A DNA stretch of 64,000 nucleotides from a virus. Taxonomy: Duplodnaviria > Caudoviricetes. Positions 4,868 to 43,900 of the stretch are shown here, piece by piece. Below the pieces are notes generated by a model, which searched no databases, was not told where the DNA came from, and saw only the letters and a list, made by a program, of their open reading frames with translations. The stretch lies in IMG/VR virus record IMGVR_UViG_3300025000_000055; one strand, written 5' to 3'. How positions within the stretch are numbered: the first letter of the stretch is position 1; each line of letters begins with the position of its first letter. Both the position numbers and the translations under genes were made by a program.

Positions 4868-5323
4868 TTAAAATAATTTAACTAATTTTTCTAATAGTTC
4901 TTGATAAATATACCAATCCTTACAGCAATCTTCTTTTGAGTATCCCACTATACACTCCCCTATACTTGGAATTAAACCTCTTCCACCCATCGGACGTTCA
5001 TTAAATGGTAAACTACAACCTTGTTCTGTTAATAACATACACACACCACCCCAAGAGGGATCGACAATAGGTGCATTTTTATTTCTTATTCTAAGATATA
5101 ATGTACGGTCTCTATCCTTATCAAAAATATCACCGTCCCACCAATCAATTGATATATAGTCTTTTTCAATTAAATCCTTTAAAGTTTCAAAATCTATATC
5201 TTCGAAATCTTTAGGTGAAAAGTGACATCCTAAATTTTTACAACATTTACCACCACATTCAAAACATAATTTACTATTTTCATTATTACTTTGAAAGTTA
5301 TTTTCTATTTCTATATTTAACAT
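4868..5323 (-). CDS. YkgJ-like cysteine-cluster (Fe-S/Zn) protein
   Basis: CFECGGKCC...GVCMLL...GCSL..NERP pattern. Confidence 0.7.
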   Translation of the reverse strand: MLNIEIENNFQSNNENSKLCFECGGKCCKNLGCHFSPKDFEDIDFETLKDLIEKDYISIDWWDGDIFDKDRDRTLYLRIRNKNAPIVDPSWGGVCMLLTEQGCSLPFNERPMGGRGLIPSIGECIVGYSKEDCCKDWYIYQELLEKLVKLF

Positions 5324-5339
5324 AATAAAACCTCCTAGA

Positions 5340-5792
5340 TTAATTATAAAATTCTGTATATCTCCTAATAAAATTTCTTACTTTATTAAGTTCATCAATA
5401 GTTGGTGTAAGTATATTAATACTATTCAATGAATTTAAAAAATCTTCTTCTTCAAAATGTAATTCATATTGAGGTGAATTACAATCACCATATTCGAACT
5501 CAATAGTGTCACAATTTATTTTACCTGAAATATCAATACATGTTCCGTCAGGTTTAATACAATAAGCATGTACTAAGGCTTTACTATATGTGGTTTCTTT
5601 ATTTTGTTCATTAACAAATTCTGCTTCTAAATCAAATAAAAGTTTTATATTATAACCAAGTTCTAAATGAAGAGCTTGGGCGAATATATGACATTTCCCA
5701 TATAAATACTGTTCAATAAATTTTCCATTTCCTCCCATTACTCCATAAAATGAGTGTTGTTCCATAAATTTAATCATTCTTTCTAATCTCAT
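5340..5792 (-). CDS. Hypothetical protein, possible Cys-His-Asp papain/transglutaminase-like fold
   Basis: GKCHIFAQAL...HAY...DISG. Confidence 0.5.
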   Translation of the reverse strand: MRLERMIKFMEQHSFYGVMGGNGKFIEQYLYGKCHIFAQALHLELGYNIKLLFDLEAEFVNEQNKETTYSKALVHAYCIKPDGTCIDISGKINCDTIEFEYGDCNSPQYELHFEEEDFLNSLNSINILTPTIDELNKVRNFIRRYTEFYN

Positions 5793-9335: not shown

Positions 9336-10379
9336 TTATTTATTTAACCAATTAACTAGTTGATTTCTTGATTCTATATTATCTAAAAAGAATTGAGCTA
9401 CACAACCACCACCACATCTCATTATTTTATCACATTCATTTACACATATTTCTGGTATTTTTCGTGTTCTTAAAAATATAAGAAGTTTATCATAATTCCA
9501 TATATTATATAAATTTGTTTTTAAAATATTATTAGGTGTTATAAAATTACCTAACCATTTAAATGCTTCACATGGAAATATATCACCTTTAGCAGATATA
9601 TTTAATTTATTAATACCAACTGAGCATGGTTTATTATTTTTATCATCAGTTATACAATTAAAAGGACAACCATATCTAATAGATAAATTTTTATATTTTT
9701 CATTACTAATTTTAATAGTTATTTCTTTTAATAAAGATTTCATATTATCCACACTAACTTTTAATTCATCATTATTTAAACACCTACCTTGTGAAACAAG
9801 TCTTAATAAACTTATTTTTTTAATACCAATATCATTAACTAAATCTATTAAATCTAAAAAATCAATATAATTTATATTTATAGGAACGAAATGAATTTCA
9901 GTTTCAATATTATATTTTAGACAACTTTTAATTGAATTTATAATAGTGTTAAACACATTTTTAATTTTAACAATTTTATATATTGTATCATCATTTGACC
10001 CATGTAAACTAATTACAATCTTATTAATATTTCTTTTAAAAAATAATAAAGTATCTTCAGATATAGATGATAATTCGTTATTATGATATATAATCCCACA
10101 ACTATAAACAGTAATGTGTAAACCTAATTTTTTAGCAAAAGAAATTATTTCTTTAAATTCAGGGTGAAGTAATGGGTCTCCACCTGATATGGATAAATTT
10201 TTAACTCCTTCAGAAACAGCATCTAATAATATATTTTTTACATCTGAAAATAATAACATATCATTACTCTTAGAATTAGCTTTAGAAGAACAATGAATAC
10301 AATTTAACATACATTTATTTGTTATTTCTATACATAAATTTTTTAAACCAATATCTGGGAACAACTGATACATTCTCAA
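9336..10379 (-). CDS. Radical SAM / SPASM domain protein
   Basis: EITNKCMLNCIHC, SGGDPLL, SPASM cysteines CSVG...FPCE...C..EC...RCGGGC. Confidence 0.92.
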   Translation of the reverse strand: MRMYQLFPDIGLKNLCIEITNKCMLNCIHCSSKANSKSNDMLLFSDVKNILLDAVSEGVKNLSISGGDPLLHPEFKEIISFAKKLGLHITVYSCGIIYHNNELSSISEDTLLFFKRNINKIVISLHGSNDDTIYKIVKIKNVFNTIINSIKSCLKYNIETEIHFVPININYIDFLDLIDLVNDIGIKKISLLRLVSQGRCLNNDELKVSVDNMKSLLKEITIKISNEKYKNLSIRYGCPFNCITDDKNNKPCSVGINKLNISAKGDIFPCEAFKWLGNFITPNNILKTNLYNIWNYDKLLIFLRTRKIPEICVNECDKIMRCGGGCVAQFFLDNIESRNQLVNWLNK

Positions 10380-10392
10380 ATTATCATCCCCC

Positions 10393-11947
10393 TTATATAA
10401 TTAAGTTATTTAATTTAACTTGTGATATCTGGGATGTACTATTGTGAAATTTCTTCATAGATAAATTAACTAATGTAGATGAAACTCTTGCTGATGTTAA
10501 TCCAATATTAGTTATATTTAACTTCTCATACATAAGTCCAGCACATACACGACATAATTTCTTAGATATACAACCCATAGGTGTTCTCATTTTAACTTTA
10601 ACTCCAAAATATTTATGTATATTATCATCATCTAATAAAATTAATTTGTTCCCTTCCATAATATATCTATATAAATAGTCGTTAATAGTATTTTTAGTTA
10701 TTATTACATCCATTAATCCTTTAGAACCACAATTACTCCCTTTATCATCTAAAACAACAGCTTGTAAAGCTGCAATAATTTTTTTAGAAAAATAACCTGA
10801 ATCAGCTGTTCCAATAGCTTTTGGATCTATATATTCACATAGGTCGTTAATCTATGCAGTTCTCTTATGAACTTCCTTATCTTTCGATAAGATACTAGAC
10901 TATATCTTCATCCTTATTATTTCTAATAAGGAGCTCTCCATTTCGATTTAAGGGATTCTCACCCACCTACTTAGGCCCTACTCCTATTGCTTATTTCAAA
11001 GCCAATGGGATAGTCGTTGAACTTTTCTCATATTTATGAGACTTAGCTGCGGATTACTCAATCCTAAAACCTTATTACTAATATAATTTAGTAGTTTTAG
11101 GCTCTAAGAGCTTCCCCGACAATTAAAAGAGTAAAACATAATATTACTATTATGCCGCCCATAATTTATAGGCACCTGTTATAATAGCATTACCATAAAC
11201 AGCTAAATCTTCTTTTGTTATACCTTCCATTAAACAATTTTCAACAAAATCAAACTCTCCTGTAGACGGATTATATACAGGGCCTTTCATAATATTAGTA
11301 TTTTTATAGTTATTACTAAAAGTACCTCTAGCACCAGATTTATAAAGTTCATAACCAGTGTCATATTTTAATTCTTCTTCAGCTAATTTTATTAATTCTT
11401 TTTCAATTTTAACAGCTGTTATAATATCACCCTGTTTTAATTTATCTTTATTTTCTTTTATTAACTTTTTTTTCATATCAATAACTTTAGGATTGGGTTT
11501 AAATAATTTCATTGTATATGAACCAGAAATAACAATATGAAATTGTTGTGCTAACCATTGAATATCATTAAGATATTTAACCATAATATTGGTATCTATT
11601 TTATCATTTAGTAATGCTTTAGATAATTTATCTTCTATTTTTAAAAGTACTTTTTTATCTATAGTTTCATTTATATATCCCAGAATATTAACTAAGCTTC
11701 TTTCAATTATATATTTATTATAAATAAATAAACCAATATTAGTTCTAACCTTATCTTTGTTAAAATACTCACTTGGTTTTAAATCAAACTCATCCCATGT
11801 TTTAAATCTACTTTTAATAATATTAATTTTCTTATTAATATCTTTTTTAACAGTATCACCAAATAATTCTATTAATAATTCAAAAGTTATATCCTCGGGT
11901 TTTAAATTTAATAGATATTCTTTATCTTTTTGAGATATCAAATCCAT
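10393..11947 (-). CDS. rpoC: Phage RNAP beta' C-terminal subunit; join(11170..11947, 10393..10826), 403 aa
   Basis: SGARG, spliced bridge helix GAYPKAIGTADSGYFSKK, CGS, RTPMGC..LCRVC, trigger-loop-like IGLTSARVSSTLVNLSMKKFH. Confidence 0.9.
10827..11169 (-). mobile_element. ORF-less group I intron (343 nt) in beta' C-half gene
   Basis: P1 GCCU/GGGC with U-G placing the splice site inside the Tyr codon (T|AT); AAUUGUCGGGGAA, AAUCCGCAGC, GUUCAACGACUA, AAGAUAUAGUCU; terminal G. Confidence 0.93.
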
Positions 11948-11980
11948 TATTTATACATCTCCTTTATATTTATTATAGGT

Positions 11981-11992
11981 TATAATTTTGTT
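11981..11992 (-). promoter_or_regulatory. Putative late promoter motif AACA-N6-TA (also minus 12967-12978, 18363-18374, 24296-24307, 26686-26697, 33331-33342, 58406-58417, 62514-62525; plus 15451-15462, 37696-37707, 37869-37880, 44278-44289, 54202-54213, 54230-54241, 56770-56781, 62915-62926)
   Basis: Correctly oriented short distance upstream of many genes, including most structural ones; matches the AR9 late promoter consensus; short motif that also occurs by chance. Confidence 0.65.
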
Positions 11993-12012
11993 TTGGTTTA
12001 TATAAAAATAAA

Positions 12013-12054
12013 AAATTTATATAATTGATAAATATTTATCAATTATATAAATTT
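12013..12054. terminator. Perfect 42-bp palindrome, likely terminator
   Basis: 21-bp arms, no loop, right after the stop of 12060..12923. Confidence 0.75.
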
Positions 12055-12059
12055 AATTT

Positions 12060-12923
12060 TCATGATGTATAAATACGATAAATAATAGTTAAATCTTTAG
12101 CAAATTGTAATAACTCATTCCCAAGATTTAATTTAGAAAATAATTTTACTTGTTTATAATCATAAGAACCATCTGCCAATAAACTTTTAATACCTGTAAA
12201 CAAACCAATGGAATTTATTCTAGCCTGTTCAATATTACCATTAAGTTCAAACCATTCTCTTACATCCAATTTACTTATTTTTAAAATAAGTTCAATAAAT
12301 GTTTCAATCGGTTCAATACGTGTAGTGTTATGAACTCCGGCCTCAACCTCAGTTCCATCTTCATCTCCTTCAGCATCTTTCCAAAGAACTTTAATTTCAG
12401 GTATTACTTCAAAGTTCTTTAAATAATAGGCTTTTTTACCATCAACTAATATTGTTTTAAACCAATATTTATCAACATCTTGCAGAGAAAGTTCACCATC
12501 AATAACTCGAAATGGTACCATATCAAAAATTTCTCTTTCATAAAATTTAACATCTACAACAGAAGTTATTGAATCCCCACAACCACCAGTTCCCACACCA
12601 AATAAACATATTACATTATCTTTAGGATATATATCAGTTACTGCAACCCCAGTTGTTGCTATTCCCATAATGTTATTTAAATAGTCAACTGTTAAAGGAG
12701 ACGCTACACCAAATATTTTTTCTAAAACATATAAAGCCCCGCCCAATATTATTTGATTCTCTTCTTCAAAAAGAACCTCTCCCAATTCAGTAATACCATT
12801 TTCATTTTTTCTAGGATTATAACCACCTATAATTTTAGTTCTTTGTAATACGCTTGGTTTAAATTCAAAAGACAAAATATTATTTGAATTGAGACTATCT
12901 TTTTTCATAATTACTTTATCCAT
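12060..12923 (-). CDS. Putative virion (baseplate/tail fibre attachment) protein
   Basis: C-terminal SIGLFTG...LFSKLN...IIYRIY resembles baseplate/tail-fibre N-domain ends; late motif upstream. Confidence 0.5.
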   Translation of the reverse strand: MDKVIMKKDSLNSNNILSFEFKPSVLQRTKIIGGYNPRKNENGITELGEVLFEEENQIILGGALYVLEKIFGVASPLTVDYLNNIMGIATTGVAVTDIYPKDNVICLFGVGTGGCGDSITSVVDVKFYEREIFDMVPFRVIDGELSLQDVDKYWFKTILVDGKKAYYLKNFEVIPEIKVLWKDAEGDEDGTEVEAGVHNTTRIEPIETFIELILKISKLDVREWFELNGNIEQARINSIGLFTGIKSLLADGSYDYKQVKLFSKLNLGNELLQFAKDLTIIYRIYTS

Positions 12924-12978
12924 TTTTTAAAAATTCAACCCCTTTCTTTACGATTCAATACCATCTTATTTATTTGTT

Positions 12979-15423
12979 TTATGATTCATGAATAATATTA
13001 ATATTATCTTTTAATGATAAAGGTGTTTTATTTATTATTAAAGAATTTATATTATTAGATGTCAATATATTACAATCATCATTAATAATAATTGTTTTTA
13101 TTAAAAGATTAATCAATGATTGTTCTGTTCTTTCAGAATCATTTTCAAAATATTTATTATCACTAAGTATTTTTTCATTTACCTTTAAAGTATTATATAA
13201 TGAAATAAAATTATCTAATAAAGATAATTTAACATCTTTATCCATATTAATACTAATTGCATTATTACAATCTTTATATATAAAATTAAAATTATCTTCA
13301 TTACCTAATACCTTATCAATAGTTTTAATATCATGTATTAATCTGACCATATTAAAGTATCTACTATTCATTAAATAAACTATATTTAATGATGTAATAT
13401 CAGTTGTATATGATTTAAAGAAATCTATAAGTGTTATTAAAGCATTTATTGTACCTGTGTTGGAATCATTTAAAAACATATCCATATATTTTAATTCACT
13501 AACAAGTTTAGTTAATCTAAATACACTATGTCTAATATATTCAGATATTTTTTCATCACCAGAAGAATTAATTATATTATACATGTCAAGATTAGAATCT
13601 TCTAAATATTCTAAAAAAGTTATAGCTATTTCACCATTAGATTTTATAAATATTTCATTATTTTCATTAGAAACCATTAAAGCATTAAATAATTTTGTAT
13701 AAGCTCTATATTCATCTATATTTTGGCTTGTTGCTATTTTTGTAACAATAAAATCATTTAAACCTTTAATATTAGCATAAAGGGAATTAATATCATTAGC
13801 ACTTGATATATTTAAATTATTTATATAATCAAGAATAGTAGTATCTATTAAGTCTGAATTTTCGTTTATATACTGACGTATTATATTAAAATCATTTTTA
13901 AAATTAAATCCCATTACTGATAATATTTTTGATGGTGTATATAAAATATTACCAGCCATTTTATTTTTTTTACAAACTAATGCTAATAAAAATACTACAA
14001 CATCAAATATTTTAAATTCAGTATTACTAAAAATTTTAGGTAATTTCATTAATATAGTTGAAACTTGTGATTTTTTATCTATTAACATTTTTAAAAAGTA
14101 TGTAGTTTCAAATAACATTTCGGTCATCTTATACATTACTTGAATATTTAAATATTTAGTTTCAATAAAATTAAAGTCTTCCTTATATAATTGAACTTTT
14201 ACTTCATCATCAAACCAATATGGGTCATCAGCAACAACTTCATCATAATCTAGTCTATTAGTATTGTCTTCTAGTGCAAGGGCTACATTACGTTCATTTA
14301 TATCCACTAATTGAAAATATAATGAATACATTTGTTCAACATCTTCAACAAGAGTAATATTTCCTAAACCATCATCTTCTTCCTTATAAAGAAATAAAGG
14401 ATTTTTATTTTCATCTAAATTATGCTGTTTTATTAAATAATATGAAAAAATTCTCACTCGTTCAAAATCTAATAAAGAACACAAATCATATAATACTTTA
14501 TCTGTTGATTTATATCGTAGAAGATTATTTAAATTCTTTAAAATAATTCTTTGATGAACTAAAGATAAATAAGATATAAAGGGTACATTATAAGATTCAA
14601 ACATCATTTTTATTGATTCCAAATCATAAAAATCCCTTGTAATACCACTTTTAAATACATCAGAGAAAGTTCTTTGAATGGTCATAAACATTATACACAA
14701 TGCAATAAAATTATCATACAAGTCATATGTTTTACTATATTCTTTTATATAAATTACTGTCATGAAATATTCTCTAGCCTGATTATAAAAATCATTAAAT
14801 TTTATATAGGTACTATCAGATATATCTTTTGTCATTTGTAGTATAGATAAGTTTTTAGCTTTTCTAGCATATGCAATTTCAATCTTATTTGAACCAAGAT
14901 AATTAAGATATTTTTTATCTGGATAATTATTTTTTATTGTTTCTAATAAACCGACATTTTTAATTGTATTTATATCTTCAACTGGATAATTATGAATAGC
15001 TATCCCATAATTTAAATTTAATTCAATACAAGTTTCTTCATCTAAATAAATAAAAGTGGTATCATCTATATCTGGCAAACCATTTAATGTCCTATAATAA
15101 TTATTATTTTCAATATAATTATTTATAATATATTCTCTTTGTTTCAGTAAGATAGTATCCCTTAAATTATAAGGTATTTTTAACTTATCTTCTGAATATT
15201 CTCTTGCTAAATCTAAGTTGGTAACACCAGCAGTTATTATTACTTCAATATTAAATTGACGATATGTATTAAAAGAGTCTAGTCCCAATACGGCAGATAC
15301 ATATTTATCACTTTCCTTTAAAGTATCAATAGTATCTAATGCTTTAGCATCATTCTCAAATTTAATTGTGATACTAGATGTAATTAATTTTATTTCATTA
15401 AAAATATTATCTATTAAATACAT
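12979..15423 (-). CDS. Putative virion structural protein (814 aa)
   Basis: Large ORF next to a baseplate-like gene; NNYYRTLNGLP motif recalled from jumbo-phage structural proteins. Confidence 0.5.
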   Translation of the reverse strand: MYLIDNIFNEIKLITSSITIKFENDAKALDTIDTLKESDKYVSAVLGLDSFNTYRQFNIEVIITAGVTNLDLAREYSEDKLKIPYNLRDTILLKQREYIINNYIENNNYYRTLNGLPDIDDTTFIYLDEETCIELNLNYGIAIHNYPVEDINTIKNVGLLETIKNNYPDKKYLNYLGSNKIEIAYARKAKNLSILQMTKDISDSTYIKFNDFYNQAREYFMTVIYIKEYSKTYDLYDNFIALCIMFMTIQRTFSDVFKSGITRDFYDLESIKMMFESYNVPFISYLSLVHQRIILKNLNNLLRYKSTDKVLYDLCSLLDFERVRIFSYYLIKQHNLDENKNPLFLYKEEDDGLGNITLVEDVEQMYSLYFQLVDINERNVALALEDNTNRLDYDEVVADDPYWFDDEVKVQLYKEDFNFIETKYLNIQVMYKMTEMLFETTYFLKMLIDKKSQVSTILMKLPKIFSNTEFKIFDVVVFLLALVCKKNKMAGNILYTPSKILSVMGFNFKNDFNIIRQYINENSDLIDTTILDYINNLNISSANDINSLYANIKGLNDFIVTKIATSQNIDEYRAYTKLFNALMVSNENNEIFIKSNGEIAITFLEYLEDSNLDMYNIINSSGDEKISEYIRHSVFRLTKLVSELKYMDMFLNDSNTGTINALITLIDFFKSYTTDITSLNIVYLMNSRYFNMVRLIHDIKTIDKVLGNEDNFNFIYKDCNNAISINMDKDVKLSLLDNFISLYNTLKVNEKILSDNKYFENDSERTEQSLINLLIKTIIINDDCNILTSNNINSLIINKTPLSLKDNINIIHES

Positions 15424-15496
15424 TTATATTTAAACCCCCTTCTGATAAAAAACATACTATTAATGAAATGTACTTTCAAAAATCTTTTTTAAGGAG

Positions 15497-16159
15497 TTGT
15501 ATTATATGAGTAATAACATAGCAAATATCAAATTTAAGAATACTAAGAATAGACCGATTATTGATTCGGATACTTGTGCATTTGCTTTACCTTTTTATAA
15601 AAATGGAGAATACTTTTCTAATATAGATAATTTTGTATCTTTTATTAAAGCGGTTGAAAAACAAGTAAGGGGTGATAATTTTTATAAAAAATATATTTCA
15701 TATTTAAAAAATGATATTGGTTTAACTAGATGTCAAGTTCTATCCAATATAGATGATGAAAGCGCTGAGATTGAACTTCATCATGGTCCGATACTTACTT
15801 TATTTGATTGTGCATGTATAATAACTGATTATTATTTAGCTAAAAATAAAAAAATAAATACCTTTATTATATCCAATACTTTATTAGAGGAACATAAAAA
15901 CAATAATATTCAGGTAGTAATGTTATCTAAAAGTGTTCATCAACAAGTGCATGATAATAATATTTTTATTAATCTTAAACAAGCTTTCGGTAATTTAGTT
16001 ACATTCTTAAACAAATATAGAACAGGAATTCATCCCGAACAAATTCAGAAGATAAATAAATATATTGAATTATCTGAGAAGTATGAATCATTTGATAAAA
16101 ATGTACTTGAATTGAAAAAAAATATTAAATCATGGTCTAATGATGAAATTATTTTTTAA
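15497..16159 (+). CDS. Conserved 220-aa protein with HNH-like His motif; paralog of 23601..24263
   Basis: C...IELHHGP.LTLFD...HQQVH...FGN shared with 23601..24263. Confidence 0.65.
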   Translation: MYYMSNNIANIKFKNTKNRPIIDSDTCAFALPFYKNGEYFSNIDNFVSFIKAVEKQVRGDNFYKKYISYLKNDIGLTRCQVLSNIDDESAEIELHHGPILTLFDCACIITDYYLAKNKKINTFIISNTLLEEHKNNNIQVVMLSKSVHQQVHDNNIFINLKQAFGNLVTFLNKYRTGIHPEQIQKINKYIELSEKYESFDKNVLELKKNIKSWSNDEIIF

Positions 16160-16161
16160 AA

Positions 16162-16200
16162 TTATAATACTAATAACTTATTAAGTTATTAGTATTATAA
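16162..16200. terminator. Bidirectional terminator palindrome between convergent genes
   Basis: 19-bp arms, 1-nt loop. Confidence 0.8.
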
Positions 16201-16208
16201 TTAATTAG

Positions 16209-16844
16209 TTAGTTATCAAATAATTTAACTGTATTAAAAAGAATTTGACTTAATTCATCAGATATCCCAAATCTTTCTTTATTATCAATTACACTCTTAT
16301 AAATATCACCATTATTATGTCTCATTGAAGCGGCTTTCCAATCACAAATCATTTCAACCAAATCAATAAGATTCATACCTCTTAATGTATATCTTTCTTT
16401 AATTTCAGGATTTGAAGTATTACAATTAGGACATTTATTATAATATGAGTGGTTATTTAGATTATTCAATCCATATCCGCATTCAGTACAATATTTTTCT
16501 TTTTTATCATAGAATTCAGGATGATGTCTATTTTTAGAATAGTGTGAATCTAATGCAACTTTCATTTCTTTTAAAAAACTTCTATACTCTTCACTACCAT
16601 AAGTAGAATCTTTAAGTTTTGGTCCATATATAGCAAAAATATCTAATTCAGGTTGTTCCATTTTACTTTTATCATGATTTAAAACCCTTTCATTTAACCC
16701 ACTTATAATTAAATTTATAAAACTAGCAACTTTATCAATATGTGTTTTTGTATCACTTATAGATTCTTCTATAAGTTTCCCATCAATATTATTATTACTT
16801 GACAAATTTAACCCCTCTTTTCTTTTCTTATTATTAAATATCAT
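16209..16844 (-). CDS. DUF5662-like (HD-related) protein with inserted Zn ribbon
   Basis: HDKSK, HYSKNRHHPE, EMICDWKAAS; insert CTECG...CPNC. Confidence 0.7.
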   Translation of the reverse strand: MIFNNKKRKEGLNLSSNNNIDGKLIEESISDTKTHIDKVASFINLIISGLNERVLNHDKSKMEQPELDIFAIYGPKLKDSTYGSEEYRSFLKEMKVALDSHYSKNRHHPEFYDKKEKYCTECGYGLNNLNNHSYYNKCPNCNTSNPEIKERYTLRGMNLIDLVEMICDWKAASMRHNNGDIYKSVIDNKERFGISDELSQILFNTVKLFDN

Positions 16845-17524
16845 AATTCCACTCCTGTCTGAATGAGTCCTTTTATATTAAGTTCTTTGTCAATAATTTT
16901 AATAAATCTATCTACACACCATATATCATCTTTAATTATATTACATTTACTAAATAAATCAAAGAATTTATTAGCATTATGATAGTATTTAAATATTTCA
17001 ACAATACCCAAAGTAGTTGTAATAATTGATTCAATTTGGTTCTCATTTAATATTTGTTTAATACCTTCGTCTAAATTCATTTCAGGATTTATTGCTTCTA
17101 CTTCTAAATAAGTATATGGACATATAAATCTACTATTCCATTTATCTATTTCATATAAAAAATTATTTAATTTAAAACTTTTTCTTAATTTATTTCCTAC
17201 TAAAATAGGAATATATAATAATTTTTCTTTATTATAATTAATTATAAGTTTTTCAAATACATCTGAATTTATAATAATAGTTCTTTCATTTTGAATTTTG
17301 TGTTTTTCCGTTCTTTCAACAATAGATTTTGTTGTGTGTTCATATGTTATAGATCTATCAATAAGAGATAATATTTTTCTTAATCTAATACTTTTATTTT
17401 TATATTTAAATATCCAGTTTGTTTGTTCCTCCAATTTAACAAATTGACATCCTTTGTCAATTAAAATCTTTTCAATTTCTTCAGCTGTACCAAGATTAAA
17501 AATCTTTATTTCTTTTTCTAACAT
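16841..17524 (-). CDS. CYTH-domain protein (class IV adenylyl cyclase/triphosphatase fold)
   Basis: N-terminal EKEIK, IRLRK, YEIDKW, YLEVEA. Confidence 0.75.
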   Translation of the reverse strand: MLEKEIKIFNLGTAEEIEKILIDKGCQFVKLEEQTNWIFKYKNKSIRLRKILSLIDRSITYEHTTKSIVERTEKHKIQNERTIIINSDVFEKLIINYNKEKLLYIPILVGNKLRKSFKLNNFLYEIDKWNSRFICPYTYLEVEAINPEMNLDEGIKQILNENQIESIITTTLGIVEIFKYYHNANKFFDLFSKCNIIKDDIWCVDRFIKIIDKELNIKGLIQTGVEL

Positions 17525-17567: not shown

Positions 17568-18329
17568 TTAAATTAAAATACTAATTAAAGGAACTAAGTA
17601 ATGTATAAAATTATAATTAATATTTATATCATTAACATAAGATGTATCTTTAACACCAATTATTTCTTTATTATATTTTGGGTCATTTAATCTAAATAAT
17701 GATTGTATATTTAGTTCTCTATAATATTCAATATATAATTTTCTTCTCTTATAATAATCAATAAAATCTTTTAAAAATTCTACTACTCTTTTTCTTTTAG
17801 ATAATTCATTCATCTTAAAAAATGTATGTAGAAAATCTAACATATATTGTCTATGATATTCTAAAGTAGTATCTGATATTCCTTTTACATCAATAATACT
17901 ATTATTATAATAAAATTCATTTTCATTTAAATAATAATAAGATGTATAAATATTCTTTTCAATAAAAGAAATATTATCTAATTCTGTAACAAGACATCTT
18001 TTAGTAACTATAATAGCATCTTTTTTTATAGATAAAATATCCTCATCTTTGAGATTGTTGTTATTAAAAAACCATTCTCTTACTTCTATAAATTTCTCAT
18101 TCAATCTTTTAAATAATTCTTTATAATTTTTCATATACAAACCTATTTGAACTTGTTTTTGTTTTCTATCTAAAGTTTCTAAATAATTTATTTTATTAGA
18201 ATCTAAAAGATTGAATTTCTTTATGATATTAAATCCTGCTGATTTAATATCATATTCAATTATCTCGTTTGAAATCAAATATTCAATATTTTTATTTAAA
18301 TAAAAATGTTTTTTAAATAAAAAACTCAT
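17568..18329 (-). CDS. Putative family-B DNA polymerase palm-like subunit
   Basis: IEYDIKSAG (motif A-like) and SIKKDAII (motif C-like) in a 253-aa protein. Confidence 0.55.
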   Translation of the reverse strand: MSFLFKKHFYLNKNIEYLISNEIIEYDIKSAGFNIIKKFNLLDSNKINYLETLDRKQKQVQIGLYMKNYKELFKRLNEKFIEVREWFFNNNNLKDEDILSIKKDAIIVTKRCLVTELDNISFIEKNIYTSYYYLNENEFYYNNSIIDVKGISDTTLEYHRQYMLDFLHTFFKMNELSKRKRVVEFLKDFIDYYKRRKLYIEYYRELNIQSLFRLNDPKYNKEIIGVKDTSYVNDININYNFIHYLVPLISILI

Positions 18330-37644: not shown

Positions 37645-37915
37645 TGAAAACAGCTCCTTTTAAATTAAATTTTTTTCTCTAATTAAAAGTTGTTGAACAA
37701 ATAATTAATGACTAATTTTATTAAATTTTTCAGGAGGTTATTGATGACAAATGGTTGGACATCTGCTCAATAATAACAAACCTTTAACCTTACTTAATTC
37801 TAAGTTATTAATTTAGAATGTAAGGATTATTTTTTACCACACTCGTATGAGTAAAATACCTGTTCACCAACATCTTTATAATAAAAAATTATAAGGAAGG
37901 GTTGGTGAACAGGTT

Positions 37916-40900
37916 TTGATTTTTATTTCAGATATACCTCATCTTAAGACTTATAAACAAAAAGTTTTACTACCTAAAGATGAAAAATACCCTAGTATTA
38001 ATAGTGTTGTTTTTATCAATAATAATACTATAGAATCTTCTATAGAGTTATTAAAACATGAATTTATTAAAAATAGTAGTATGTATCATTTTTATTTTAT
38101 GGACCAAATTTATAGTGGTAAATTATTTAATAGAACATTTAGGATTTTATACCGTAAAGAAAGAACTGATATTTATACTAATATAGAAAAACAAGTTAGA
38201 TTTATACAAACAGTTACAGATTTACCATCAGTAAATAAAAAAAATATATATGTTGATTTAATAAAACATAATACTTTATTTTTTGAATTAAGTAAGAAAG
38301 TTAATTTTGGAGTTAGAATTAAAAATTATATAAGTTATTTAGATAACTTAATTAATAATAGTCATTTTAATCAATACAAATATAAAACAATTTGTATTGA
38401 TATTAATAGTTGGATTAACGACGTGGGAACCCAAATAAAAGGTAAATTAAATTTTGATAATCCTATATTTATTATTTATTACTGTATGTATAAATATTTT
38501 GATAAATTTATAGAATTAGGAAATATTAATATTATCTTTTATACTAATGATAGTGTATTAAGATTAAATCCATCATTATGTGATAAAAATTCATATTCAT
38601 TATTTAAGAAAGAGATTATGAAATCATCTCCTAAAAGTTTATTGGATATGGATGAAGAAAATATTGAAAAAATATTAAAAAGAAAAGAAATTGCAGATAA
38701 AATGATAGGATATCTTAATGACCAACATAGATTTATTGGTGATAATAAAACTGAACAAGATGATGAATTTGAAAATAGTATTGAAGAAAAAGTTGATGAA
38801 ATAATTGATGCTAATAAATTAGATGATTCTAATAGTGAAGAAATATATAATAAAGTTTCATCTACTATTATTAATGATAATGAAATTATAAAAAAAATTC
38901 ATATGTTGAATCAGGAGAAAAAAGTTGGTAGAAGTACAGCTTCTATTAAAAGGGATGAAGAATTAAGAAATAAGCAGAAAGAAATAATAGAAGATAAAAT
39001 GGGAATATATATAGATAATATATATGAAACTACTAATAAAGAACAACTCGATATTCCTAAATTTGATGTTTCTGATAAAGTTAATACTACTAATAAAAAT
39101 ATAACTACTATAAGATATCCTCATTTTGAAAAGGCATATAATGAAGTTCTTCATGAAAAAGATTTACTTAATAATATAAAGTTTTTAAATGAAAAATCTA
39201 TTCCAGTTTACATCAGGAACATAGAACACATTGATTCTTCTGATGAATTAAATTTAAAAGAAACATATACCTTTGAATTAGAAGATGAAAATAGAGTTAG
39301 ACATAAATTAAAATTCGATGTACCTAAATTTATAGATGATAAATTTCTATATTTAGGTGGAAATAAAAAGATTATTATGAAGCAATTATTTATGAAACCT
39401 GTTGTTAAAACAGGTCCTGACGAAGTACAAATTTGTACTAATTATAATAAGATGTTTATTAGACGTTATGGTACTAAAATATCATCTAAAATAGAAAAAA
39501 TGAGAAAATTATTATATGAACAAAAAGAAGGTATTAAAGTTAAATATGGTAATAATTTATCTAGTAATAATAAATATAATACTACTATAGAATATGATGA
39601 ATTATCTAAAAGCTTTACTTATATTCGTATAGGTAAAACTGAATTTTATTTTAATCAAGATGATGTTATTAATATGATTACAGATAAAAAAATAAAACTT
39701 AATGAAAATGAATTATTAATAGGTTTTCATGATAATGGTAAAACACCAATACCTATTATAGTTGATATAAATACTCAAAGAATCGGTACATCTTTTGATA
39801 TAGTTGGTTATATACTTTCTATGTTGACTCAAGGTTTAGTACAAGATTTTGATGATATTAAAAGTGGTAAAAAATTCGTATATACTAGAGCTTATATAAT
39901 GCAAAAACATGTCCCTGTAATTTTATTAATTTCATTTCTAGAAGGTTTATCTACAGTAATAAAGAAAGCTAATATAAAACATTACTTTTCAGATAAGAGA
40001 CCTAAAGACATAACTAGTAATGAGGGAATAATTCAATTTAGTGATGGGTACTTAATTTATGATAAGTATCCATTTGAAAACTCTTTATTAATGAATGCAT
40101 TTGCCGATATTCCTACTAAAACTTTTGAATATAGTGAATTTGATTCAAAAGATGTTTATTTATCTTTATTTGATACTCTTTATAATAGTAGAATAATTGG
40201 TAATGCTTTTCTTAATTCATATGAATTTTTAATTGATCCTATTACAAGAGAAGTGTTACAAGATTTAAATTATCCAACTGATTATGTTTCTTTAGTTCTA
40301 TATGCAAATTCATTATTGGCAACTAATTCGTATATTAAAGAGAATAATATGAATCTTTATAGAATAAGATCAAATGAATTAGTTAATGCTTTAATATATA
40401 AAGAAGTTGCTAACGCTTATATTAAATATAGAACTACTTCTTTAAATAATAATCCGGTTAAAATATCTGTACCTCAAGATATCATTATTAAAAAATTACT
40501 GGTTGCACAGACCGTGGAAGACTACAGCACATTAAATCCTATTGTTGAAGTTGAGAAATCAAGAGTTATTACACCAAAAGGTCATTCAGGTATGAACTTG
40601 GATGAAGCCTATACACAAGATAAAAGGTCATATGATAAAACAATGTTAGGTATTTTAGCAATGTCAACTTCACCAGATTCTTCATGTGGTGTAACCAGAC
40701 AATTAACCTTAGAACCCAATATAAAAAATCCAAGAGGGTATATTGATATAAATGATGATAGACTTGATAAATTAAAAGATGTGAATTTATTTTCTCCAGC
40801 TGAATTATTGTCTCCTTTAGGAAATACACGGGATGAGTTGCTATTGTCCCACTATATAGAAATATATAGTTAAAAACTCTTCTAATTGTCGGGGACATCC

Positions 40901-43900
40901 TTATTGCTCTTATTACCAAATTATATTAGTAATAATATAATGGCTTAATCTAATCAATTAAGGTATGGTAACAAGATAAGAGATTGGGTAATCCGCAGCC
41001 AAGTCTCATAGTATAAAAAAATAAAAAGAGTTAAAAATTATAACTCTTTTAAATTAATTTTAACAATATTCTTTACCTTTTATTACATGACAAAGATAGT
41101 TATGGATATCACGAAGTTCTCTTCTAATATATAATTTATGTATTTCTCCAGTACCATCATATAATTCATCATATAATAAGAAGGTTTCTTCGATATAATA
41201 TCTAAAAAGTTCTAAATTTTTACGAGTAACAAATTCATCTGTTGCTCTTTCTTCGTTATTGTTATATTGCTTTAAGTCATTGGTGAATCTTTGTTCAAAG
41301 AACTTTTTAGTTATTTCTATAGATTCTTTGGAGATACAATCTGGATCTAATTCTTTGATACCATTCATTAAAATATCTTTGTAGGTAACTGACATAAAAA
41401 TCATTCCTTTCTTTTTTATATTATATAAATAATATATAAATGAAAAATAAAATTATACTATGAGAAAGGTTCAAAGACTATCGAAAGCATGTTTATTATT
41501 TAATAAACAGAAGTGAGTAGAGTAGGGGAAACCCCAAACGGAGAGCATCTAAACACGTAATGGTGAAGATGATGATATAGTCTGTCACTTATGGAAATCA
41601 TAGGTGGTTTCTGGATAGCATAAGAACAGCGATGAGTGTAAAACAATCAAAACATATAGTTCCAGTAATAAAACAATCACCAGTTTTATTATCCAATGGA
41701 GTTGAACAAGTTATTCATTATCATTTGTCAGACGACTTTACAGTTGTAGCTAAAGATGATGGTGAAGTCGTTGAAATAAATAAAGAAACTGGTTTAGTTA
41801 TTATTAAATATAAAAATGGTGAAACGAAAGCAATTGATACAAGTCCAAGAGTAGTAAAAAATGGTAAACTAAATGCCCATTTATATGGTGACATATAAGT
41901 GAATCTTCTTTAATTGTCGGGGAAGCTCTTAGAGCCTAAAACTACTAAATTATTAGTAATAATGTTTTAGGATTGGGTGATCCGCAGCTAATAATTAATA
42001 TACGTTAACTATGATAAAACTATTAAAAGAAAGGAGGAAAAAATATGTTATATGTCTTTTGTGGTAATAAAGAGTTTTGGGTTGATTTAAATTATGATAT
42101 AATATTATCTATATATCAAATAAGTTTTTATGGTAATATTATTAATAAAGAAAATGGTAAAATATTAAAAGGTCATATTGATAAAAAAGGTTATGTTCAA
42201 GTTATGTTAAAAACAGTAGAAAAAAGAATTAAAAAATACAGAATACATGTTTTAGTAGCAAATACTTTTTTAAAATTTCAAAAAAGTGAAATTAATAATA
42301 CTGTAAATCATAAAAATGTAAAAAGTAAAAAAGATAAAATTAATAATAATGTTAATAATCTAAAGTGGGTTAGTAATGCAGCTAATAATAAACACGCAAA
42401 AGAAAATGGTTTAATTCATAAAGGTGAAGAATGTCATAATTCTATTTTCAGTAATAAAGAAATTCATAAAATATGTCAAATGCTTCAACACGAATATTCT
42501 TATTCTGAAATAATAAAAGAATTAAAATTAAACGATAATAAAAATATACGAGCTTCTTTATATAGAATAAGAAAAAGGATATCATGGGCACATATTAGTA
42601 AAAATTATTTTTGGAATGATTCTTATAGTTCGAATGGTAAAAGAAAATTAAAATCTTATAAAAAAATAAATGAAATGAAAGAATTAATATTAAGAAATTA
42701 TTCGTTTAATGATATATGTAGAATTTTATTAATTAGAAATAATTCTAATAATAGAGACATATATCGTAATATAAAAGATGGAAATGCGTATATTGATTAA
42801 AGTTCAACGACTATCCTTTAGCTTTGAAATAAGCAACAGGAGTAGGGCCTAAGTAGGTGGGTGAAAGTCCCTTAAATCGAAATAGGAAGTATCTTTATGA
42901 GATGAAGATATAGTCTAGTATCCTATAGAAATATAGGGAAGTTCATAAGAGAACTGCATAGATTAACGACCTATGTGAATTTTTACGGCCGGAGGTTTCT
43001 TTTTATCAAATAAGTTATCATGTGATTTGAAATTAGGGCAAAAAATAAAGAAAAAAGATATATTGGCTTATGATAGTAATTTTTTTAGTAATAATAAATT
43101 ATATGGTAATAGATTTAATATTGGTTCATTGCAGAAAATAGCCTGTATGTCCTCTTATTCAACATATGAAGATTCTACGTTTGTTAGTAAAAAATTAAGT
43201 GAAGATATGGCAACATATATTGTTATGGAAAAACCAGTTACTTTAGGTAAAAATGCTAATGTTGACTATATAGTTGAAATAGGTCAAAATGTTAGTGTTG
43301 GGGATGAGCTAATTAGATTTGAAATTTCATTTAAAGATGATTCATTAAATAAATTTCTTTCAAATGTTGGAGACGAGTTAAAAGAAGAGATTAAAGCAAT
43401 GGGTAAGACACCTATTAAAACTAAACACTCAGGTGTAATTGAAGATATTAAAGTATATTCAACTGTAGATATTGAAGAATTATCTCCTACATTAAAAAAG
43501 ATTGTTAACGATTATTATGACAGAATTAATAGGAAGAAAAAAGTTCTTAATAAATATGATAAAAGTGACTCTGTTTATAAATGTGGTATAATGGTAAATG
43601 AACCTGTTGGTAAGATTGAAAGTAAAGATGGTAAAGTTAAAGGTCATACTGTTAATTCAGGGGTTTTAATAATATTTTATATTAAATATAAAGATACAGT
43701 TGGTGTTGGAGATAAAATATGTTTCTTTACTGCATTAAAATCTATTTCCGGTGAAGTTATACCTGAGGGATATGAGCCATATTCTTTATTTAGACCGGAT
43801 GAAGAAGTATCTTCAGTAGTTGCCCCAGGAGCAGTAATGAATAGAATGACTCCATCTGTTATATTGTCAATGTTTGGTAATAAGGTATTAATAGAATTAA

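Follow-up and report, generated by a model that had tools for sequence, protein, structure and literature searches.

The window described here is a stretch of 64,000 nt (IMG/VR record IMGVR_UViG_3300025000_000055), the reverse complement of bases 84,891–148,890 of a 187,268-bp virus record with 24.8% G+C that represents an uncultured, giant, AR9-like phage. It contains a gene coding for a virion RNA polymerase (RNAP) beta-like subunit that is interrupted by a 779-nt group I intron, here called I1 (40835–41613, + strand), and the P6a loop of this intron is filled by a 436-nt cassette on the opposite strand (41017–41452, −), in which a single open reading frame (ORF) lies between a predicted promoter and a predicted terminator.

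The interrupted gene begins with exon 1 (37916–40834, +), which has 973 codons, ends with ...GNTRD and matches the PHROG RNA polymerase beta subunit family (E = 8.5e-93); it continues in exon 2 (41614–41889, +; 3' end approximate), which has about 92 codons and begins with DSIRTAM..., and the last exon also matches a PHROG RNA polymerase beta subunit family, at E = 4.4e-65. The best cultured-phage matches of the last exon are at bases 149149–150027 of Bacillus phage AR9, within g189, which is annotated as a virion RNAP beta subunit in six joined pieces (GenBank KU878088), and g189 is also matched by exon 2 and by the 3' end of exon 1. Because the exon matches fall on g189, the gene is the orthologue of this AR9 virion RNAP beta gene, which is itself intron-rich. 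The insertion point of I1 is within the conserved RDDSIR motif, and we take the GNTRD|DSIR region to correspond to the HDDANRALMG...QRQAVP motif of bacterial beta.

The intron has the full set of helices from P1 to P10, including P7.1 and P7.2, with P2, P3, P4, P5/5a/5b/5c, P6/6a, P7, P7.1, P7.2, P8 and P9 placed using Watson-Crick or G.U pairs only; P2 is an 8-bp helix with a GAAA loop, and P9 is also GAAA-looped. The internal guide sequence (40841–40850, +) provides one strand of each splice-site helix: in P1 the last five nucleotides of exon 1 (40830–40834) pair with 40846–40850, the exon-terminal U at 40834 forming a G.U pair, and in P10 the guide bases 40841–40845 pair with the first five nucleotides of exon 2. 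The two pairings (GGGAU|/GUCCC and CUAUU/|GAUAG) adjoin within the guide, and the intron ends with a G at 41613. Joining 40834 to 41614 keeps the reading frame (...GNTRDDSIRTAMSVKQSKHIVP), with the same junction in the related loci L014, L021 and L039, and the spliced product reads ...GNTRD|DSIRTAMSVKQSKHIVP (...GNTRD|DSIRTAMSVKQSKH). An earlier note, made from the letters alone, had proposed a group I intron here, and the splice-site pairings, terminal G and core helices bear this out with its ends exact. I1 is predicted from this architecture to be a functional, splicing-competent group I intron of the P7.1/P7.2 type, like T4 td-type phage introns. The intron family to which I1 belongs is present in the genome in at least twelve copies, recognised by common core motifs; three ORF-less sister copies score 67.3, 64.9 and 55.6 bits against Rfam RF00028 (gathering score 50) in short-locus searches, and the 5' half of I1 is 79% identical to one of these.

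Read on the − strand, the cassette opens with an early-type promoter core, TATATATTATT (41428–41438), followed by the Shine-Dalgarno (SD) sequence AAAGGAA (41404–41410), which is 8 nt before the start codon and identical in L010, L014 and L021, then by an ORF coding for 111 amino acids plus a stop (41060–41395), and closes with an intrinsic terminator (41015–41050) formed by a 10-bp hairpin and U5AU7, the U-run reaching into the 5' strand of P6a. Each element of the opposite-strand unit that the earlier note described inside the stem, namely early motif, SD, ORF and terminator, is where it was placed. The promoter assignment draws both on enrichment in the genome and on the match to AR9. There are 29 copies of the 11-mer TATATATTATT against about 8 expected (5–11 in Markov shuffles), nearly all of them 25–65 nt 5' of an SD and start codon on the same strand, and the regions upstream of ORFs (n = 188) have the early motif in sense for 26 and in antisense for 2. 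The cassette core TATATATTAT is exactly that of the experimentally mapped early consensus of the AR9 virion RNAP, AAATATATATTAT-N6-G (PMC5312081), and 24 nt separate it from the annotated start codon, with a predicted +1 base of A where the AR9 consensus has G.

The terminator is one-way, as the U-tract that follows the hairpin in the sense direction is interrupted; a simple scan requiring three G-C pairs missed it, being AT-rich. All six intron-borne homologues have a hairpin and U-run in the same position, with hairpin sequences that differ, and promoter, SD, ORF and terminator keep their positions across the six cassettes. The cassette thus appears to be an autonomous, moron-like unit with its own predicted promoter, ribosome-binding site, ORF and terminator.

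The length of 111 amino acids is counted from the second ATG (41395), an upstream ATG being out of frame in homologues, and the predicted protein is mildly acidic (isoelectric point 5.2, net charge −5). A word-indexed search returned three relatives and an exhaustive HMMER search 30 clusters at E<1e-3, and a further family search with an 11-sequence alignment gave five loci, mostly found before. When the ORF and two remote members of the family were used as tblastn queries, GenBank phages gave no match, and the family is known from metagenomes alone. In the alignment D53 is invariant and R36, K42, Y44, N45, E69, E70 and R95 are nearly so, and the ratio of nonsynonymous to synonymous substitution rates (dN/dS) against the closest homologues is 0.17–0.23, indicating a real gene under purifying selection. 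With the alignment, AlphaFold2 predicts four long helices, a one-turn fifth helix and no strands, with a predicted local distance difference test score (pLDDT) of 90.3 and a predicted template modelling score of 0.84; this model was used in place of a single-sequence one, which was poor (pLDDT 48).

Neither sequence nor fold searches assign the protein to a known family. Pfam, PHROGs, NCBIfam, PADLOC and a family-profile search of the PDB gave no credible family for the ORF, and no Pfam or PHROG nuclease family matches it or any of 33 family members. Foldseek against the PDB, AFDB clusters and BFVD returned only generic helical bundles at E>0.9, as did a VIA exhaustive structural scan (Z of at most 7.8) and an Atlas shape search; the bundles include the Enzyme I N-terminal domain, YqeY and bromodomains, none of which stands out, and an ESM Atlas feature search gave only a 0.75 match to an unnamed viral cluster. 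Every known homing-nuclease class contains beta structure, whereas the model is all-helical, although a novel nuclease could also lack a fold match. These library searches, the isoelectric point and the model agree with the earlier description of an acidic, helical ORF without nuclease motifs. An unrecognised or decayed endonuclease was raised as a possibility at the same time; a recognisable or decayed one is contradicted by purifying selection, by the conserved helical family, by its free-standing members and by the presence of near-identical copies at three unrelated sites. The protein would exert its effect early in infection, on a partner from the host or the phage.

Three other assignments were considered and rejected. 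The R-x5-H pattern in the last helix, as in HEPN RNases, is not conserved across the family; the order of acidic motifs differs from that of MazG-like pyrophosphatases, and MazG is absent from the fold lists; and a link to IS605/TnpB is seen in just one of about ten contexts. In this one (L027:4001–5565) only 9 nt separate the free-standing member P0007 from the TnpB/Cas12f-like gene that follows it, and the contig is prophage-like and has an integrase.

The loop is closed by a 13-bp stem whose strands (41004–41016 and 41453–41465, +) are exact reverse complements of each other, as first noted. In the RF00028 alignment of sister introns the stem falls after P4' and before J6/7-P7, which identifies it as P6/P6a, the usual slot of homing endonuclease genes (HEGs) in T4 td-type phage introns; an assignment to P8 was ruled out by the same alignment. 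The stem covaries in relatives, reading TCTTATAGTA/TACTATAAGA in L023 and CCTCATAGT/ACTATGAGG in L039, so that TCTCAT/ATGAGA becomes TCTTAT/ATAAGA and CCTCAT/ATGAGG, respectively, and the P6a stems of cassette-bearing introns are 9–13 bp long. Because these long stems covary, the P6a pairing, and hence splicing, is argued to be under selection. In an ORF-less sister intron P6 (11024–11041, −) is TCTCAT-AAAT-ATGAGA, the same stem closing on a 4-nt loop, also in accord with the earlier description. Two sister introns outside the window differ from this one: at C1:167603 (+) in the genome, the P6 loop of an ORF-less copy consists of the early-promoter 11-mer in sense, TCTCA-TATATATTATT-ATGAGA, and at C1:11350–12362 (−), one of four ORF-bearing introns besides I1, an HNH gene is broken into frames of 58 and 138 amino acids and looks like a decaying endonuclease.

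The proposal that the cassette is an insertion is upheld by comparison with L014 and L021, whose beta exons are 90–95% identical in protein to those of the window and have the same intron at the same site. The ribozyme halves of these introns are 91–97% identical to those of I1, and their P6 is short, unrelated and ORF-less. The non-coding flanks of the cassette, on both the promoter and terminator sides, are instead 88–96% identical to those of cassette-bearing introns elsewhere, and the junctions of the swap are within about 10 nt of P6, in P4' and J6/7 sequences common to the family. The simplest history consistent with these comparisons is that recombination with a paralogous intron exchanged the entire P6 hairpin. 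We note that L014 and L021 have a second intron 18 nt 3' of site 1, the site of I1 (L014:7085–7126 and L021:5160–5203), leaving a six-codon micro-exon, DSIRTA; the window does not have it.

The next intron of the beta gene, at site 2 (~41890–42987, +), has a different occupant. In the window its P6 loop contains an HNH/NUMOD4 homing endonuclease gene in sense orientation (42045–42800, +; PHROG HNH, E = 9e-23; Pfam NUMOD4), whereas in L014, L021 and L023 the same site has the antisense cassette of the 111-aa family; the HNH genes seen in this intron family are all on the sense strand. Megablast of 40–43 kb against GenBank phages gave a sole match, 42 nt inside intron 2, and the intron family reaches far beyond the present clade. 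The matching segment (42939–42980, in the 3' part of the intron) is 100% identical to stretches inside the RNAP beta-prime genes of two Vibrio phages, vB_pir03 and C-ZP2022.

P6a loops at five locations contain members of the 111-aa family in antisense orientation: that of the window, at beta site 1; those at beta site 2 (L014–17, L021–22 and L023–24); those in a DNA polymerase gene region, 3' of a PolB N-terminal exon (L010–13); those in another gene, with a second ORF of 76 amino acids behind the family gene (L018–20); and that of the array in L039. Every intron-borne copy has a TATATATTAT-type motif by the 3' arm of P6a and a hairpin and U-run by the 5' arm. The copies at beta site 1 (window), beta site 2 (L014) and the DNA polymerase region (L010) are 77–80% identical and, because they occupy three unrelated exon contexts, a site-specific homing enzyme is argued against. 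The more distantly related members stand free, among arrays of small genes that run in the same direction, without nearby intron motifs. Two details of individual copies are of note: the 76-aa ORF in L018 overlaps the end of the family gene, and in L023 an SD-preceded, 20-codon hydrophobic mini-ORF (MFHVIIFFMLLRILSRLGKK) lies between promoter motif and family gene, about 60–120 nt upstream of the start of P0006 (4001).

Relatives with different cargo in the same loop, which had been suggested as something to look for, are present in L023 and L039. In L023 an antisense ORF of 147 amino acids (5277–5720, +) is in the P6 loop of an intron between the exons that flank site 1, and in L039 an antisense ORF of 125 amino acids with an early-type motif (17754–18131, −) is in the site-2 intron; both are unrelated to the 111-aa family, with no family match. 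L039, a 258-kb compost contig (RCUE01000010.1), also has an unusually large insertion at site 1 (intron region 9644–17334), where the 5' half ends with CCTCATAGT (~9793) and the 3' half starts with ACTATGAGG (~17205), a gap of about 7.4 kb. Apart from a single ORF in sense, the gap is occupied by about 13 antisense genes, among them P0010, which belongs to the 111-aa family, and one for a DUF6036 nucleotidyltransferase; the antisense array opens with an early-type motif beside the 3' arm of P6. No other 3' half was found between the two halves, and the arrangement is either a cis-spliced intron of about 7.7 kb or a trans-spliced pair.

The promoters suggest that cassette and host gene are transcribed at different times. 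A motif resembling the late promoter of AR9, AACA-N6-T(A/G), also points mostly towards genes (54 in sense, 20 in antisense), with a peak 24–38 nt before start codons; upstream of the beta gene there are three late-type AACA-N6-TA motifs, one ending 35 nt before the start, and no early motifs. AR9 expresses g189 late, and an early promoter of its own precedes g190, which lies within an intron of g189 (PMC5312081). Early antisense and late sense transcription is a well-founded inference, because the promoter core matches that of the AR9 early consensus, the host gene has only late motifs and the AR9 orthologue is late. A further suggestion of the earlier note, that antisense RNA could block splicing, finds no support, as the terminator would confine the predicted RNA to the P6a loop, off the core and exons.

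Two other features of the beta gene may be mentioned. An exact 13-bp inverted repeat (37859–37871 and 37901–37913) flanks the ribosome-binding site and a late-type AACATCTTTATA (37869) and stops 3 nt short of the TTG start codon; it could be involved in translational or processing control, and Rfam gave only a spurious miRNA match for 37859–37913. Within exon 1 there is an exact early-promoter core TATATATTAT in antisense (39024, −) with no obvious ORF downstream, which may be an antisense promoter or a chance occurrence.

We propose, with a probability of roughly 70%, that the locus is a non-nuclease early cassette that has been moved between paralogous introns by recombination and is spliced out of its host mRNA. 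The anatomy of the cassette, its conservation, its mosaic origin, its recurrence and its lack of nuclease features are observed, and the proposed working builds on them as follows. The cassette would have entered by a swap of the whole P6 hairpin through the near-identical P4' and J6/7 sequences of paralogous introns. Early in infection the injected virion RNAP would fire the cassette promoter, giving an mRNA of about 400 nt that ends at the terminator, still within the loop, and a small helical protein acting on a host or phage partner; the terminator would halt antisense transcription before it entered exon 1 or the core of the ribozyme. At the late stage, transcription of the beta gene by the non-virion RNAP would run across the cassette, the 13-bp P6a stem would close the loop and rejoin the two halves of the ribozyme, and the ribozyme would fold, the cassette leaving with the intron. 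Cassette and host gene would probably be read at different times by different polymerases, and the host gene may tolerate the cassette because of splicing, the lengthened P6a stem, the terminator and this probable separation in time and polymerase.

Several points weigh against this reading. Promoter use, timing and splicing are all argued by analogy with AR9, the phage itself being uncultured. The three bases 5' of the cassette promoter core are ATT where AR9 has AAA, and in AR9 one predicted promoter was inactivated by a single deviation in the upstream AAA (PMC5312081); the ATT variant is shared by 7 of the 29 core copies in the genome, each before a gene. RF00028 gave no match to I1 itself, either in gathering mode on the window or in E-value mode on 37–46 kb, presumably because of the 436 nt inserted in the P6a hairpin; the whole-window gathering scan also missed the ORF-less intron at ~10845–11150 (−), scans of large windows under-calling this AT-rich intron family. 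The conserved charged residues R36, K42, D53, E69, E70 and R95 could form an active site, and the 111-aa family is met in introns more frequently than other cargo, which recombination can account for but a role in mobility would fit as well.

The last two points lead to the suggestion of an intron mobility factor of a new, all-helical kind, which would act as a homing nuclease or promote recombination; the place of the protein in the HEG slot would then be functional and not incidental. The family does sit in the exact P6a slot of at least seven introns at at least four sites and recurs there while other cargo is seen once each, its members have invariant acidic and basic residues, and the free-standing copies are compatible with such a role, since free-standing HEGs exist. 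But searches turned up neither a nuclease motif nor a nuclease fold, the model lacks beta structure, 111 amino acids is very small for recognition of a long site, and copies that are 77–80% identical are at unrelated target sequences; the conserved flanks already explain the spread of the cassette, the L039 copy is one gene in the middle of an array of 13, and the free-standing members are in small-gene arrays and not between conserved genes. We consider a mobility factor unlikely.

Attention could alternatively be shifted from protein to RNA, with early antisense transcription across the P6a loop acting to repress or delay the beta pre-mRNA at the level of expression or splicing, while the ORF would be secondary. 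Convergent promoters within an essential late gene are suggestive of this, as is the promoter and 5' untranslated segment being 92–96% conserved, above the coding region. We judge it less probable still, as the ORF is under protein-level purifying selection and its family is also found outside introns, the terminator keeps the RNA in the loop where it has no pairing with core or exons, the two RNAs, if early and late, would barely overlap in time, and orthologous introns manage without the cassette. If the ORF were open by chance in an AT-rich loop, or were what is left there of a decayed endonuclease, this would explain why Pfam and PHROGs are empty and why the single-sequence fold is poor, but it is very hard to reconcile with 30 clusters, a dN/dS of about 0.2, a pLDDT of 90 with the alignment and a conserved SD, promoter and terminator, and we give it almost no weight.

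A broader picture can be put forward tentatively, and we would lean against it as a whole. The P6a loop of AR9-like jumbo phages would be a general docking site for early accessory cassettes, from one gene to arrays of about 13 in an intron of roughly 7.7 kb, which would always run antisense to a late, essential host gene and be shuffled among paralogous introns through recombination in the conserved flanks of the ribozyme, with the timing of the two RNAPs preventing clash, and the recurrent four-helix family would be a new intron-adapted factor, for example one aiding persistence of cassette or intron or countering host defence.

Phage group I introns are usually treated as ribozyme-plus-homing-endonuclease parasites. 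The locus shows that they can also shelter ordinary accessory genes inside essential genes, with the endonuclease slot reused for selected non-nuclease genes on the opposite strand, at several sites and with several unrelated cargo genes. This would make the introns cost-free berths for accessory genes within essential, highly conserved genes, and the conserved ribozyme arms portable recombination handles for gene transfer. It would also exemplify how the two multisubunit polymerases of AR9-like phages divide their work in time, and the unannotated 111-aa family, with some 30 clusters, is a defined target for function screens.

A structural parallel is found in the T4 td and nrdB introns, where HEGs are looped out of P6a. 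They share with I1 the phage group I type with P7.1/P7.2 and a P6a-loop ORF with its own expression signals, but their genes lie on the sense strand and code for GIY-YIG or HNH endonucleases, which drive homing. Ordinary genes are housed in the hexacoral mitochondrial ND5-717 intron and in fungal mitochondrial rnl introns (rps3), and these organellar introns are likewise self-splicing introns with non-endonuclease genes inside, the ~7.7-kb L039 intron being comparable in scale; they differ in that the genes are sense-strand core genes without their own promoter or terminator. ND5-717 is described as a giant group I intron (PMC6545197).

Among jumbo phages, AR9 g189 has five introns, one with an HNH gene, g190, under its own early promoter (PMC5312081). 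The likeness extends to the orthologous late host gene, the intron-rich region, the core of the early consensus and the independently expressed intron gene, but g190 is a sense HNH homing endonuclease, whereas the gene described here is antisense, non-nuclease and has its own terminator. PhiPA3 gp210, an HNH endonuclease encoded within an intron of a jumbo-phage RNAP gene, acts in phage-phage competition (PMC11620839); there too the cargo of an RNAP intron may benefit the phage, but it is a sense nuclease directed against a rival's gene, and the cassette has no nuclease features. The opposite orientation has its counterpart in the nuclear ribosomal DNA (rDNA) introns Dir.S956-2 and Dsq.L2066, which have antisense His-Cys HEGs read by a different polymerase from an internal promoter, with separated transcriptions invoked against interference (PMC9548176). 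These are eukaryotic, with insertions in P9.2 or P2, true endonucleases, polyadenylation signals and spliceosomal introns (PMC9548176).

Phage morons are autonomous promoter-gene-terminator modules (PMC10914365), and the cassette resembles them as a single gene with its own promoter and terminator that is patchy among relatives; morons sit between genes, whereas the cassette is in an intron of an essential gene and on the opposite strand. A full-text literature search found no case of a group I intron of a phage in which a self-contained gene other than an endonuclease gene runs antisense, and none of such cassettes turning up repeatedly in different introns. Each component nonetheless has its precedent: P6a ORFs, an intron gene with an early promoter, antisense HEGs in rDNA introns, organellar cargo genes and morons.

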